Origin: an uncultured bacterium
GTDB lineage: Bacteria > Krumholzibacteriota > Krumholzibacteriia > LZORAL124-64-63
DNA length: 64,000 nt
Reading direction: 5' to 3'
Assembly (NCBI GenBank): GCA_963727525.1
Contig: CAVSGO010000007.1
Location: forward strand, 224,001-288,000
Below the pieces are notes generated by a model. That model was given only the letters and a program-made list of their open reading frames with translations, made no database searches and was not told the origin of the DNA. Positions 53,618 to 60,767 of the stretch are shown in pieces; position 1 is the first letter of the stretch; the number at the start of each line of letters is the position of its first letter. The translations under genes were made by a program, and so were the position numbers.

Positions 53618-53719
53618 CGGTTGGCCCCGCATTGAGGGTTCGCTCAGGGTGTGGTATCCTGTCGGACAGGTCGGCCAGGGGAACCGACCATGAGCCCTTC
53701 AGCCGCGAGGTTCTGCTGC

Positions 53720-55774
53720 ATGCATCCACGTCGTGACTTCCGTCAGGCGCCGCTGGTCGGTGCGTTGATGCTCCTCGTCCTGATGGCGCCGGCCACGGCC
53801 GCGCACGCCTGGCCCGATCACGATCCCAAAGCTCCACCGCCGGACGCGCCGGCCACGCGGGATGCCTGGGAACATAAGATGCTGCCCGCCGGCAATCCCG
53901 AGCATGGCGACGCCGTGGTCACGAGCGACCGCTACGACGTGCGGCGCTACGATCTCGACCTTCGCATCAGTCCCGAGGACACGACCGTCGCCGGCGTGGT
54001 CACGATGATCTTCACCAGCAAGGTGGCCGGGCTCGCGTCGTGCGTGCTCGACTTCGCCAATCGTGGGCTCGATGTCGACGGCGTCAGCGACGGCTCCGGC
54101 GCGCGGCCTTTCGTGCACCAGGGCGACTCGCTCAGCGTCAGCCTGCGCGCACCGCTGGCTGCGGGCGACGTCGACTCGCTGCGCATCGCCTACAGCGGAC
54201 GGCCCGGGAGCCCCGCCGCCGACCGCGGACTCTTCTGGCGCGAGCACTTCCACTGGATTCCGTCCGAGGAGCAGACCGTCGACGGCGGCCGCGCGATCGC
54301 GAACATGAGCGAACCTTCCTATGCGCGTTACTGGTGGCCATGCAAGGATCGGCCCGATGACAAGGCCGACACCGTCCGGGTGGCCGTGACGGTACCCGAC
54401 ACGCTGGAAGTGGCGAGCAACGGGCGGCGCATGGGCGTAACGCCGGCCGAACCCGGCTGGCGCACGACGACCTGGCTCTCCACCTATCCGATCGCGACGT
54501 ACCTCGTGAGCGTGGCGGTGAGCAACTACGCCTACTGGGAAGACGCGTGCACCACGGCGCTCACCACCGACCTGCCGCTCGTGAGCTACGTCTTCCAGCA
54601 ACACCTGGCGAACTCACATGTCGAATTCGCTCCTCTTTGCGACATGATCGACGCCTGCGAGAGCTGGTTCGGCGCGTATCCGTTTGCGCGGGAGAAGTAC
54701 GGTCATGCCGAATTCGTCTGGGGCGGTGCCATGGAACATCAGACCTGTACGAGTCTGGGCGCCGCTTACCTCAACGGGTCGGGCGAATCGAATGCCGAGG
54801 GCGTCATCGTCCACGAACTCGGTCACCAGTGGTTCGGCGATTCCCTCACTCCCGACACCTGGGCCGACATCTGGCTGAATGAGGGCTTCGCCACGTACGC
54901 GGAGGCGCTATGGGCGAGCCGCCAGGATCCTGCTTCGGGCTATCAGGACTACATGAGCGGGATCCGCGATTTCTATGACTGGGTTGGTGACAGCCAGGTG
55001 TACGATCCCGTGCCCGTGTTCCCGGGTTGGGTGATCTACCGCAAGGGCGCCTGGATCCTGCACATGGTGCGCGGTCGCCTCGGCGACGACGCGTTCTTCG
55101 CCATGCTGGAAGACTGGGCCACGGGCGGGGGCCGGCCGTACCACACGGTCACCACCGAGGAATTCATCGACCACGCCAGCTCCTACGCCGGGGAGGATCT
55201 CCACGGGTTTTTCGATCCCTACCTGAAGACGACCGCGTTGCCGCAGGTACGCCTGGCCACGACGATCGCGGACGGACCACGCGGCGCGCAGACACGCCTG
55301 CACGTGGAACTGCAGCAGGTGCAGATGCCGCTTTTCGACAACGTGTATCCCATCCGGGTGGCCACGGCGGCCGGCGATACCACGCTGCGCGTGCGCCTCG
55401 CCGCCGCCAGCGCCGCCACGGTCGTCGACGTCGCCGCGGCCGTGCAGACGGTGACGCTGGATCCCGAGCACTGGGTGCTCTGGCAGAGCACCCGCAGTGG
55501 TCTGCCCCTGCTGGCCGTGCATCCCAATCCCAGCGCCGCGGACGTCACGATCACCTACCGTACGGCGCAGGCACAGGACGTCACATTGAACGTGTACGAC
55601 GTGCGCGGGCGGCTGGTGCGTTCCCTGAATCGGGGCATCATGGCGCCGGGCGAGCATCAGGACACCTGGGATGGGTACGACGACACCAGCCGGCGCGTCG
55701 CGAGCGGCGTCTACTGGATCACGGTGGAGATCGATGGCCGTCGCCAGGTCGGGCGCGTCACGATCGTGCGTTGA
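53720..55774 (+). CDS. Secreted M1 aminopeptidase with C-terminal FlgD/CTD-like domain
   Basis: GAMEHQT, VHELGHQWFGD...WLNEGFA, YRKGA; C-terminal PNP...YDVRGRLVR...WDG..ASGVY; start uncertain (53651-53768). Confidence 0.9.
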   Translation: MHPRRDFRQAPLVGALMLLVLMAPATAAHAWPDHDPKAPPPDAPATRDAWEHKMLPAGNPEHGDAVVTSDRYDVRRYDLDLRISPEDTTVAGVVTMIFTSKVAGLASCVLDFANRGLDVDGVSDGSGARPFVHQGDSLSVSLRAPLAAGDVDSLRIAYSGRPGSPAADRGLFWREHFHWIPSEEQTVDGGRAIANMSEPSYARYWWPCKDRPDDKADTVRVAVTVPDTLEVASNGRRMGVTPAEPGWRTTTWLSTYPIATYLVSVAVSNYAYWEDACTTALTTDLPLVSYVFQQHLANSHVEFAPLCDMIDACESWFGAYPFAREKYGHAEFVWGGAMEHQTCTSLGAAYLNGSGESNAEGVIVHELGHQWFGDSLTPDTWADIWLNEGFATYAEALWASRQDPASGYQDYMSGIRDFYDWVGDSQVYDPVPVFPGWVIYRKGAWILHMVRGRLGDDAFFAMLEDWATGGGRPYHTVTTEEFIDHASSYAGEDLHGFFDPYLKTTALPQVRLATTIADGPRGAQTRLHVELQQVQMPLFDNVYPIRVATAAGDTTLRVRLAAASAATVVDVAAAVQTVTLDPEHWVLWQSTRSGLPLLAVHPNPSAADVTITYRTAQAQDVTLNVYDVRGRLVRSLNRGIMAPGEHQDTWDGYDDTSRRVASGVYWITVEIDGRRQVGRVTIVR

Positions 55775-57252: not shown

Positions 57253-58641
57253 CTACTTCCAGTGCTCGGAGATGAAGGCATCCACCTCGGGGATGCCGCC
57301 CTGCATCACGAGATATCCGTTGTGGGGCTCGCGGTCGGTGATCTCACCACACACCGGCGTGAGCATGAGGCGCTCGACCTCGGCGTGGTCCTGGCTCTGG
57401 GCCAGGGCCCAGCCCAGCTTCACGTAGGCCACCTCGGGCAACATGTTGGCTGCGGGCACCACGCCCTTCTCCATGAGCTCGCGCCCGGTCTCGTAGACGT
57501 ACATCTGTACGTAGCCCCAGAGCGTCTGCACGGTCATGTAGACGTGCAGGCCCGCGTCACGCGCGCGCTCGAGCGCAGGGTACAGCGGTTTGTTCACGTG
57601 ACCGAGGCCGGTACCCGCGATGATGATGCCGCGATAGCCATTCGCGATCAGGGAGTCGATGATGTCGGGCTTCATGTTGGGATAGTAGTAGACGATGGCC
57701 ACGCGGTCGTCGAAAACGGCCTTCAGATCGACGTGGGTATCGTCGCGGCGATGGTGGTAGTCCTGGCGGAAGGGCGTCACGCCGTCGGCGTCGACCTTGC
57801 CGAGGGGCACGTCGCTCAGCGTGCGGAAGGTGGAACGATACGACGAGTGCATCTTGCGCACGCGGGTGCCCCGATGCAGCAGGCCGTACTGGTCGCTGGT
57901 GGGGCCGAACATGCACACCATGACCTCGGCGATGTCGCTCGTGGCCGCCGTGCGCGTGGCGTTGATCAGGTTGATCGCGGCGTCGGAGCTGGGCCGGTCG
58001 CTCGAGCGCTGGCTGCCCACCATCACGACCGGCACCGGCAGGTCCTGGAGCATGAACGTGAGCGCGGCGGCGGTGTGATGCATGGTATCGGTGCCATGGC
58101 CCACCACGATGCCGGCCACGCCCTTCTCGATCTCGCGGGCGATGGCCTCGGCCGTACCCATCCACTGCTCGGGCCCCATGTTCTCGCTGAAGACGCCGTA
58201 CAGTTTCTCGGTCTCCAGGTTGCAGACGTCCGCCAGCTCGGGCACCGAGCCGTACAACTCGCCGGGACTGAAGGCCGGAATCACGGCGCCGGTGCGGTAG
58301 TCGAGGCGGCTGGCGATGGTGCCGCCCGTGCCCAGGAGCTTCACACGTGGTTTCACCGGATCGTAGGGGAAGGCTTTTTCCGGGATCTGGTAATGAGCTT
58401 CCTTGCGACCATGCACCGTGATGCGCTGCACCGTATCGTGGCGCACGCCGATGTTGTAGCCGGTGTCGAGCTTCAAGACGATGTGATCAGCGTCGGCTGT
58501 CTCGCTGCGGGGCAGGATCAGACCGGTGAAGTCGCCTCGCGTCGTGTGCAGGGTGGCCAGGCTCCAGACCTTGGCGTCCTGCGACTCCAGCAGGTCGCGC
58601 GTGGGGCAGCGGTATCCGCGGTATGCGTCGTTCGTGCTCAC
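57253..58641 (-). CDS. gatD: Glu-tRNA(Gln) amidotransferase subunit D (archaeal-type)
   Basis: GatD N-terminal domain (GLILPRSE...IVLKLDTGYNIGV) plus asparaginase-I-like core GTGGTIASRLDYRTGAV, HGTDT, GSQRSSDRPSSD, KMHSS, MLPEVAYVKL. Confidence 0.92.
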   Translation of the reverse strand: MSTNDAYRGYRCPTRDLLESQDAKVWSLATLHTTRGDFTGLILPRSETADADHIVLKLDTGYNIGVRHDTVQRITVHGRKEAHYQIPEKAFPYDPVKPRVKLLGTGGTIASRLDYRTGAVIPAFSPGELYGSVPELADVCNLETEKLYGVFSENMGPEQWMGTAEAIAREIEKGVAGIVVGHGTDTMHHTAAALTFMLQDLPVPVVMVGSQRSSDRPSSDAAINLINATRTAATSDIAEVMVCMFGPTSDQYGLLHRGTRVRKMHSSYRSTFRTLSDVPLGKVDADGVTPFRQDYHHRRDDTHVDLKAVFDDRVAIVYYYPNMKPDIIDSLIANGYRGIIIAGTGLGHVNKPLYPALERARDAGLHVYMTVQTLWGYVQMYVYETGRELMEKGVVPAANMLPEVAYVKLGWALAQSQDHAEVERLMLTPVCGEITDREPHNGYLVMQGGIPEVDAFISEHWK

Positions 58642-60545
58642 GCGAGCGCCTCCTTCACCCAGGTGCTGACGGTATGGCCGGCCACGCGGCCGCGCAGGCG
58701 CGGCATGACGTGTCCCATCGCGAAGTTCAGGTGGGCGCCGGTGTCGCGCGGACCCGGCGGGAGAGTCTGCAGCGCAGCCGCCACGCCGGCGCGCGCCTCC
58801 GCCTCCGCCAGTGGCGCCAGGGGTTCATCGTCGGCATTGTACACGCCCTCGGGCAGCACGTCACCGCGGACGAGCCGTGCGACGACGCGACGCCACCAGT
58901 CGCCCGCCGCGCGCAGGCTGGGCGGGCGCGGGCAGGAGCGATCGAGAAGCAGCGAGGCCAGGCCGGTGGGCGTGAGCCGGCTGTCGTCGGGCAACGTGGC
59001 CACGAGGTCGAGGAAGAGGTCGTAGGCGAGATGCCGGCTCAGGCGCTCGGCGAGGTCAGGTCCCACGCCGAGGTCCTGCAGGCGCTCCTGCCGTTCCCAC
59101 GGCCGCTCGGGCAGCCTGGCGAACACGCGGTCGAGACGTTCGTCGTCGATGCGGATGGGTGGCAGATCGGTGTCGGGATACATGCGGTCGGCGCCGGGCA
59201 GGATACGCTCGAAACCGTTGGTACCGTCGTCGAGGGCCTGGCGCGTCTCGCCCGGCACACCGGTCACCGCGTCGCGGGCGCGGATCACGATCTCGCGCGC
59301 GGCCGTCTCGGCGTCGTGCCGGCGTCCCCAGACCACGAGGATGGGCGTGGCCGTGTCCACCTGGCAGGCCTTGGTGACCTTGTCCCACTCGCCGCTGCTG
59401 AACGTGGGGGCATCCTGGGAGGAGCAGGCCAGGTTCGGCAGGTCGTCGATGCAGGCGATCACGCGGATACGATCGCTGAATTCCTTGAGGAACGACGTGC
59501 GCGGCTGGGTCTGGCACGACATGAGGCCCGCGAAGCCCGGCAAGGGCACGGCAAGTACGGTGGCGCCCTTGTCCACCGCCTGGCGCACGTTCCGGAACTC
59601 CGTGCTGCGCACCGTGGTCGTCACGTCGACGGCTTTGTCCGCGATGCCCTCGGCGGTCACGCCGCGCAGCGCCAGCTCCTTCTGGATCGCCACCAGCGTG
59701 GTCTGGCGCAGACCCTCGTTGTGTACGAGACGGGGGATGTGGCGCAGGCTCGGCACGCCCTTGATCTCGATGCGCGTGCCGCCGGTCACCGACACGTTGA
59801 CGTCCTGGCGCGCGGCACCCGGTCCCGTGCGCACCAAACCGCTGACGCGCGCGAGCCAGCGCAGGATCTGTCCCACTTCCATCACCTCGTGGGGCGTCGT
59901 CATGTCCGGATCGGTGACAGTCTCGATGAGCGGCATGCCGAGGCGATCGGTACGGTAGGTGCGCAGGTGACCGCGGTCGCTCACCTCGCGGCAGCTATCC
60001 TCCTCGATCGAGATCTGACGGATGCGTACGGTGCGCCCCCGGTACGGGATGGCGCCGTCGGTGCCCAGGATCGCGGTGCGCTGGAAGCCGGTGGGGATGC
60101 TGCCGTCGAGGTACTGCTTCCGTGTGATGTGCACCTCGCTCACGATGTTGCAGCCGAGCAGACGCGCGACCGCGAAGGCGCGGTCGAGAGCCTCGGCATC
60201 GATCTCGAAGGGCGGTGCATCGTCCATCTCGTAGGTGCACACCGTCTCGTTGTTGAGCAGGTAGACGATGTCCTTGCGCGTCTTGAACTCCATGAGCGCG
60301 GTGCCGTCGTACTCGCCCATCTCCGAGAGCGTGGGCCGCATATGCCGTAGCACCTCGGCGTGGTGCTCATCGCTGTAGCGGCCGGCCGGGCAGCGGCAGA
60401 ACAGCTTGCGCCGGGTGAGCAACTGCTGGTGTATCTCGAGGCCGGACATCAGGCCGAGGGCGGCGTATCCCTCGCGGTCCAGCTCTCCGAAGAGCGGCAG
60501 GGGCCGCTGCAGCCAGGGATGGGTCAGGGCACGATGGTGGTCCAT
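58638..60545 (-). CDS. gatE: Glu-tRNA(Gln) amidotransferase subunit E (archaeal-type)
   Basis: GLEIHQQL..KLFCRCP, RPTLSEMGE.D..A..E, DGSIPTGFQRT, IEEDSCR, DRLGMPLIE, RQDVNVSV, IEIKGV, AspRS-like insertion, PGADRMYPDTDLP; alternative start GTG 60572. Confidence 0.92.
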   Translation of the reverse strand: MDHHRALTHPWLQRPLPLFGELDREGYAALGLMSGLEIHQQLLTRRKLFCRCPAGRYSDEHHAEVLRHMRPTLSEMGEYDGTALMEFKTRKDIVYLLNNETVCTYEMDDAPPFEIDAEALDRAFAVARLLGCNIVSEVHITRKQYLDGSIPTGFQRTAILGTDGAIPYRGRTVRIRQISIEEDSCREVSDRGHLRTYRTDRLGMPLIETVTDPDMTTPHEVMEVGQILRWLARVSGLVRTGPGAARQDVNVSVTGGTRIEIKGVPSLRHIPRLVHNEGLRQTTLVAIQKELALRGVTAEGIADKAVDVTTTVRSTEFRNVRQAVDKGATVLAVPLPGFAGLMSCQTQPRTSFLKEFSDRIRVIACIDDLPNLACSSQDAPTFSSGEWDKVTKACQVDTATPILVVWGRRHDAETAAREIVIRARDAVTGVPGETRQALDDGTNGFERILPGADRMYPDTDLPPIRIDDERLDRVFARLPERPWERQERLQDLGVGPDLAERLSRHLAYDLFLDLVATLPDDSRLTPTGLASLLLDRSCPRPPSLRAAGDWWRRVVARLVRGDVLPEGVYNADDEPLAPLAEAEARAGVAAALQTLPPGPRDTGAHLNFAMGHVMPRLRGRVAGHTVSTWVKEALA

Positions 60546-60688
60546 GGACACCGCCGAGAGGCTAGGGGACACGAGATCGTGGGAGCCGGAACTTGCGGAC
60601 CAAATATAGATTGCAACGGTTTAGCGTCCAGGAAAAGCCGTGGGTAGGGCGCACCGTCGCCAAATTCCGCGTTTTTACTTTCATTTTT

Positions 60689-60706
60689 CTGTGAAAAGTG
60701 TAACAA
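60689..60706 (+). promoter_or_regulatory. Putative Rex operator
   Basis: CTGTGAA-AAGT-GTAACAA versus consensus TTGTGAA-n4-TTCACAA (3 mismatches), in the AT-rich region upstream of rex. Confidence 0.6.
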
Positions 60707-60767
60707 TGCGAGCCACATTGTAGGCAATGCTGTCCATTTCTCGAAGATGCTGCGCGGAGGTGATGGT

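Follow-up and report, generated by a model that had tools for sequence, protein, structure and literature searches.

A GatDE operon beside GlnRS in a Krumholzibacteriota genome belongs to a large bacterial branch and may encode an auxiliary Glu-tRNA(Gln) amidotransferase

We analyzed a stretch of 64,000 nucleotides from an uncultured bacterium of the Krumholzibacteriota (contig CAVSGO010000007.1, positions 224,001 to 288,000, of assembly GCA_963727525.1; hereafter the window), which carries a complete operon for the two-subunit amidotransferase GatDE. Our analysis indicates that this operon is an ordinary, vertically inherited representative of a sizeable bacterial branch of GatDE, annotated in databases and undiscussed in the literature. 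As to function, we hold with roughly even confidence that the enzyme would be active in amidating Glu-tRNA(Gln), having adapted to the bacterial form of tRNA(Gln), and would serve as an auxiliary or clean-up route; our data establish its family membership, intactness, conservation, fold and gene context, whereas its substrate and its physiological role are what we infer.

Both genes are intact and translationally coupled, as a first-pass annotation made from the letters alone had described (Table 1). At their junction the minus strand reads ...GCG TGA, with the gatD start codon overlapping the gatE stop codon to give GTGA, and the gatD GTG is preceded by AAGGAGG at a distance of 7 nucleotides. 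That annotation had also extended gatE to 60572, and while the frame is indeed open that far, the more likely start is the ATG at 60545, because the identical protein on record (P0003) has 635 amino acids. The two genes are encoded together well beyond this genome: of 80 loci across many phyla, 74 have gatD immediately downstream of gatE (these and all later locus counts refer to the best 80 of 596 related stretches, L021 to L100).

Profile searches separate both proteins from their nearest look-alikes. GatE passes the curated equivalog model NF003107 (479 bits, cut-off 456) as well as TIGR00134 (408.7 bits, cut-off 319.55), whereas GatB models reach 61-139 bits on it, far short of their cut-offs (338 for the best of them). 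GatD attains 512 bits on TIGR02153 (cut-off 324) and stays below the cut-offs of two asparaginase equivalog models and of the type II subfamily model; its pass on TIGR00519, the subfamily model for type I asparaginases (374.7 bits, cut-off 260.5, match at residues 98-435), is expected, because its catalytic core is of the asparaginase type. The N-terminal domain and the GTGGT and HGTDT motifs that had been credited to GatD are all found: Pfam detects GatD_N (46.6 bits, cut-off 25.7) together with Asparaginase and Asparaginase_C, both motifs stand in the translation, and an alignment with archaeal GatD spans the entire protein and takes in the GTGGT, HGTDT and RKMH blocks. Across phyla GatD is also far better conserved than its partner, with 67-88% identity to the window protein in loci L021 to L100 versus 47-78% for GatE.

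The long, AspRS-like central insertion claimed for GatE is borne out by two lines of evidence. The Pfam GatB_N profile, 277 positions long, is stretched over GatE residues 43-480, revealing a central insertion, and an AlphaFold model built from a 32-row alignment (predicted local distance difference test score (pLDDT) 90.1, predicted template modeling score (pTM) 0.85) has as its top structural matches GatE of 1ZQ1 (1zq1_C; E = 6e-52, TM score 0.81 on target) and 2D6F, then GatB chains, and from rank 18 onward AspRS structures (1efw_A, E = 1.1e-4), so that the insertion is reflected in the model as well. Pfam GAD itself gives no match in the window GatE at E <= 0.001. An alignment of 32 GatE sequences from bacteria and archaea has 60 invariant columns, including the GLEIH, EED, RQDxNxS, IKGV and RMYPxTD blocks, which we take to be catalytic, and this conservation points to retained chemistry. 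Rough ratios of nonsynonymous to synonymous substitution (dN/dS) of 0.04-0.32 in nine pairwise comparisons, computed on stop-to-stop frames that inflate dN, indicate purifying selection. Toward the C-terminus, where a YqeY-like tail would read the tRNA D-loop, the GatE profile matches end at position 503 of the 630 in the profile, alignment with archaeal GatE tails is weak and limited to residues 612-641, and in the model predicted helices continue to residue 634 at pLDDT 70-90; GatE tails are described as unresolved in crystal structures in a section of PMC2811023. Judged by sequence, divergence within GatE is greatest in its putative tRNA-reading parts, namely the tail and the AspRS-like insertion.

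Placed among known systems, the operon is closest to archaeal GatDE from Methanothermobacter thermautotrophicus (2D6F) and Pyrococcus abyssi (1ZQ1), with which it shares a two-subunit operon and the same domain set, consisting of an N-terminal domain and asparaginase core in GatD and a cradle, AspRS-like insertion, helical part and tail in GatE (GatE, 322 and 306 bits; GatD, 407 and 391 bits). Unlike these archaeal systems, it resides in a bacterium with GlnRS and a U1-A72 tRNA(Gln), and its GatE, at 34-38% identity to the archaeal structural matches, falls with bacterial sequences in a separate, strongly supported clade. With bacterial GatCAB it has in common the cradle and helical domains shared by GatE and GatB, the same chemistry, and the fact that both face U1-A72 tRNAs in bacteria; GatB, however, is without the AspRS-like insertion, and the amidase partner here is the asparaginase-like GatD rather than GatA. 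The type I match over the GatD core is likewise a resemblance to type I L-asparaginase (AnsA), from which GatD differs by GatD_N, its higher scores on the GatD equivalog models and its translational coupling to gatE.

Bacterial GatDE is not rare. Relatives are encoded in at least 596 stretches (596 of 598 candidates) of a species-representative genome collection, and the best 80 all come from records whose titles name bacteria or bacterial taxa, among them Krumholzibacteriota, Ignavibacteria, Melioribacteraceae, Kapabacteria, Bacteroidota, Rhodothermaceae, Phycisphaerae, Aminicenantes and others; in some cases the titling is probably unreliable. NCBI and JGI records already annotate proteins of this branch as GatE. 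Within a sample of 151 genomes of the phylum, GatE scores above cut-off in 115, and seven fragments at contig ends (E <= 1e-30) bring the count to 122; in a second sample, of 61 genomes from the class of the Ignavibacteria genome G154, it is found in 13. In the paper library that we searched, no paper on bacterial GatDE was found, nor any that links GatDE with Ignavibacteria. Reviews and primary papers state that GatDE is exclusive to archaea (PMC2811023, PMC9499178), and genome surveys treat missing GatCAB as sufficient evidence of a "defunct indirect pathway" (PMC3927822). The existence of so broad a GatDE branch in bacteria overturns the archaea-only statement as well as the conclusion drawn from missing GatCAB, and raises the questions of how GatE recognizes a tRNA with a U1-A72 pair and what keeps an amidotransferase in place beside GlnRS and AsnRS. 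For these questions the window operon offers a clean setting, with GlnRS and AsnRS present and GatCAB absent in a near-complete genome.

For a phylogeny, we assembled a GatE set from 150 cluster representatives, of which the 116 with 560-720 amino acids were kept, and added 22 labeled loci, the window GatE and four GatB sequences; many of the rows carry no taxon label. In the FastTree phylogeny, 58 rows fall into a single bacterial-type clade (support 100). In a quick IQ-TREE run (LG+C20 PMSF) on 74 hand-picked rows (33 bacterial-type, 24 labeled archaeal, 13 unlabeled and 4 GatB), the bacterial-type clade comprises 34 rows including the window GatE, again with support 100, and an Asgard-labeled clade of 11 rows lies beside it (support for the union, 96). 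An approximately unbiased (AU) test did not reject a tree that groups all other GatE rows together (log-likelihood difference 0.63, p = 0.482), and therefore transfer from an Asgard-like source and an ancient sister branch are not separable, and we claim no donor. We also observed one row inside the bacterial-type clade, P0393 on a 5.16-Mb contig, that is labeled "Thermoplasmata archaeon", reflecting either a wrong label or archaeal members of the clade.

Genomic context agrees with the earlier expectation that contamination or very recent transfer is unlikely. The source assembly (4.66 Mb, 8 contigs, 96.7% complete) has as its nearest named GatE relatives metagenome-assembled genomes (MAGs) of Candidatus Krumholzibacteria / Krumholzibacteriota, at 68-78% identity. 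As had been described, the neighboring genes encode bacterial proteins, namely Rex, a SPOR protein and peptidases of families M28 and M1, the latter with a type IX secretion system (T9SS) sorting tail, and the base composition is ordinary, with an operon G+C of 0.688-0.693 inside a window range of 0.638-0.726. We judged the soundness of the contig by synteny with independent assemblies, in which the order SPOR-Rex-gatE-gatD-(M28/M1/hexapeptide/PALP) is repeated among relatives; SPOR-Rex-gatE-gatD-M28 is kept in L021, with similar orders in L023, L024, L026, L027 and L031. The public sequencing runs found for this genome were two DNA runs that share 6-7% of the sampled words, with no RNA run listed. 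Bacterial neighbors, recurrent gene order and ordinary G+C together make a chimera or a recent import unlikely, as does the presence of GatE in most genomes of the phylum sample.

Table 1 Features of the gatED operon and its surroundings (window coordinates)
Feature	Position	Strand	Description
gatE	58638-60572	minus	Longest open reading frame 644 amino acids from GTG 60572; 635 amino acids from ATG 60545
gatD	57253-58641	minus	462 amino acids from GTG; GatD N-terminal domain and asparaginase-type amidase core
GTGA overlap	58638-58641	minus	gatE stop (TGA) with gatD start (GTG), read from the sequence
Shine-Dalgarno AAGGAGG for gatD	58649-58655	minus	Within the gatE 3' end, read from the sequence
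Intergenic region, gatE / divergent rex	60573-60746		Two sigma-70-like minus-strand sites, consensus matches alone
Sigma-70-like sites	60744-60717; 60630-60603	minus	Consensus matches alone
Rex-operator-like inverted repeat CTGTGAAAAGTGTAACAA	60689-60706		11/14 positions of a Rex-operator consensus; operon membership tentative
M1 peptidase	53651-55774		FlgD_ig and Por_Secre_tail (T9SS sorting) domains

What the operon does must be weighed against the other routes to Gln-tRNA and Asn-tRNA in the same genome. A genome search found GlnRS (722.9 bits), AsnRS (634 bits), one GluRS, one bacterial-type AspRS, and both AsnA and AsnB, whereas GatB was not found (a GatE cross-match only) and neither was GatA (only a 176-bit amidase). 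The first-pass annotation had suggested that this lineage may make its Gln-tRNA by an archaeal-type pathway, possibly with an altered tRNA(Gln), and neither suggestion is supported: by gene content GlnRS supplies a direct route, and the tRNAs carry the bacterial first base pair. Among 50 tRNA genes of the window genome, tRNA(Gln)(CUG), tRNA(Gln)(UUG) and tRNA(Asn) are all U1-A72, and so are all 22 tRNA(Gln) genes read, namely these two and 20 tRNA(Gln)(CUG) genes of relatives from all gene-content classes. According to PMC2811023, archaeal GatDE recognizes its tRNA through the D-loop together with the first base pair, which PMC9499178 gives as A1-U72. If the bacterial enzyme acts on tRNA(Gln), its GatE must therefore differ in specificity from the archaeal one, since tRNA(Gln) here is U1-A72.

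To place these gene contents in a wider frame, we scored GatE, GatB and GlnRS in both genome samples (Table 2), using presence thresholds of our own (E <= 1e-30 for GatE, E <= 1e-60 for GatB and GlnRS); the counts are raw, without phylogenetic correction, and related genomes are not independent. GatE is commoner in the presence of GlnRS, both in the phylum (100 of 108 GlnRS-positive vs. 22 of 43 GlnRS-negative genomes) and in the second lineage (12/32 vs. 1/29), and conversely GlnRS occurs in 100 of the 122 GatE-positive phylum genomes. AsnRS is present in 144 of the 151 and GlnRS in 108, and still GatDE or GatCAB is kept in 147; where GlnRS is present and GatB is missing, GatDE is kept in 45 of 46. 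GatB is missing only with GlnRS present, save in four incomplete GatE-positive genomes and in four genomes (three and one) with none of the three genes.

Table 2 Combinations of GatE, GatB and GlnRS in the two genome samples
GatE	GatB	GlnRS	Phylum (n = 151)	Second lineage (n = 61, completeness not given)
+	+	+	55	9
+	+	-	18	1
+	-	+	45 (the window genome's type)	3
+	-	-	4 (all 75-89% complete)	0
-	+	+	7	18
-	+	-	18	27
-	-	+	1 (G011)	2
-	-	-	3	1

Near-universal retention of an amidotransferase beside GlnRS and AsnRS favors an essential activity shared by GatDE and GatCAB, namely Glu-tRNA(Gln) amidation, which a section of PMC2811023 presents as the sole activity common to the two. By analogy with the archaeal enzyme, GatD would release ammonia from glutamine or asparagine, and GatE would phosphorylate the glutamate on mischarged Glu-tRNA(Gln) and then amidate it to Gln-tRNA(Gln). 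The mischarged substrate would come from a GluRS that is not fully discriminating, and the enzyme would accept a U1-A72 tRNA(Gln) in place of the archaeal A1-U72 form. GatDE cannot be the main Gln-tRNA route in the window genome, because GlnRS is present, and the patterns of GatB loss and GlnRS enrichment argue that it is auxiliary rather than stand-alone, while leaving room for another role linked to GlnRS.

Several observations weigh against this reading. With GlnRS, AsnRS, AsnA and AsnB all present, GatDE is dispensable by gene content, and the archaeal identity element A1-U72 occurs in none of the 22 tRNA(Gln) genes. Krumholzibacteria GatE proteins have no precomputed Pfam GAD or GatB_Yqey matches on record where archaeal GatE have both, which suggests that their tRNA-binding parts have diverged. 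In neither sample is GatDE a convincing sole Gln-tRNA route (the four candidates in the phylum are less than 90% complete, and there are none among the 13 GatE-positive genomes of the second lineage), and the confinement of GatB absence to GlnRS-positive genomes, with the exceptions named above, argues that GatDE by itself may be unable to meet the need for Gln-tRNA. G011, at 95% completeness, has GlnRS, neither amidotransferase, and the same tRNA(Gln)(CUG) as its relatives. Finally, the GluRS of this genome has an arginine aligned with Arg358 of Thermus thermophilus GluRS, a residue tied to tRNA discrimination; this last test is not decisive, because in the same alignment the GluRS of Mycobacterium tuberculosis, a non-discriminating enzyme, also has arginine at that position.

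Two further candidates were tried and set aside. G157, a Rhodothermaceae MAG in which neither GatB nor GlnRS was found, looked like a GatDE-only bacterium; it is probably incomplete, since even the GluRS cross-match seen in other genomes is missing. We also considered split charging, in which GluRS and GatDE would supply tRNA(Gln)(CUG) and GlnRS would charge tRNA(Gln)(UUG), applying the identity rules of Escherichia coli GlnRS. The CUG isoacceptor carries A73 and C3-G70 in 15 of 15 same-family copies, whatever their GatB status, and tRNA(Gln)(UUG), read in the window genome alone, carries G73 and G3-C70. Split charging is weakened because all 15 same-family genes share the A73/C3-G70 form, as does G011, which has GlnRS and no amidotransferase.

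A bolder picture, which we regard as rather unlikely, is that a bacterial and possibly Asgard-related GatDE is functionally tied to cells that contain GlnRS and is not a spare archaeal pathway. It would never be the sole route, would read U1-A72 tRNA or a new substrate, might in this family be switched by Rex, and GlnRS and GatDE would perhaps derive from related donors.

A changed tRNA substrate seems unlikely to us, but several observations would fit it. Bacterial GatDE would then amidate another mischarged tRNA, such as Asp-tRNA(Asn), in replacement of a lost GatCAB: GatB is missing and GatE retained in 38 of 60 relatives from the same family (39 of 61 when the window genome is counted), the putative tRNA-reading parts of GatE are those that have diverged most, tRNA(Asn) has the same first base pair as tRNA(Gln), and in one of the 80 loci (L041) the gene immediately upstream of gatE, in the same orientation, encodes AspRS. 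We note that gatD was not found in locus L041. On the other hand, AsnRS is nearly universal in the phylum sample and the window genome adds AsnA and AsnB, so that tRNA-dependent Asn formation is not needed; the AspRS-like insertion is kept in the GatE model, and archaeal GatDE is specific for Glu-tRNA(Gln), as stated in a portion of PMC2811023.

Equally improbable, in our estimate, is a role outside routine translation, exerted with or alongside GlnRS, or one in which GatD acts mainly as an asparaginase or glutaminase; possible tasks would include a conditional, redox-controlled supply of Gln-tRNA or the amidation of a non-tRNA substrate. The association of GatE with GlnRS in both samples would suit such a role, although those counts are not corrected for shared ancestry, and so would the gene rex, which is divergent from gatE in 11 of the 80 loci with a Rex-box-like palindrome in between. 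Against it stand the retained coupling of gatE to gatD, the invariance of GatE blocks common to the tRNA-dependent GatB, and our failure to find a third conserved neighbor across phyla, the largest flanking cluster being Rex itself in 10 of 80 loci. A decaying, functionless relic of an old transfer is very improbable: redundancy by gene content speaks for it, whereas intact above-cut-off frames in 115 of 151 genomes with a single listed match that has an internal stop, dN/dS well below 1 and the high cross-phylum identity of GatD speak against it.

The spacer between gatE and rex also offers a candidate for regulation. Its inverted repeat was scored against a Rex-operator consensus, and in a plus-strand scan only two sites in the whole window score 11/14 or as high; comparable TGTTA-N8-TnACA palindromes are found in the rex-gatE spacers of relatives. 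The site may place gatED under redox control, or may serve the autoregulation of rex alone. GlnRS adjoins gatED in 2 of the 80 loci (L040 and L038), a linkage that speaks for the auxiliary Glu-tRNA(Gln) amidotransferase; no tRNA-Gln gene adjoins it in any of the 80, the single tRNA call lying inside gatE and being probably false. The domain content of the M1 peptidase near the operon (Table 1) fits a host of the FCB group.

Additional observations concern individual genes. The match G044:C21:35615-37447 is the sole listed GatE match with an internal stop, a single TGA, and may be a pseudogene or reflect a sequencing error, as may the GlnRS-like frame at G134:C35:70920-71993, which is the second in that genome and is interrupted by two in-frame TGA codons. 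In the window genome (G000), the tRNA-Gln(CUG) gene adjoins tRNA-Glu(CUC) (C7:179391-179584), and the two follow the single GluRS gene (C7:175699-177162) at a distance of about 2 kb downstream. ARAGORN also called a tRNA-SeC there (C7:1642602-1642699) and two unusually long tRNAs, an 88-nucleotide tRNA-Phe (C3:428695-428782) and a 93-nucleotide tRNA-Ala (C6:195227-195319), which may be false or carry insertions.

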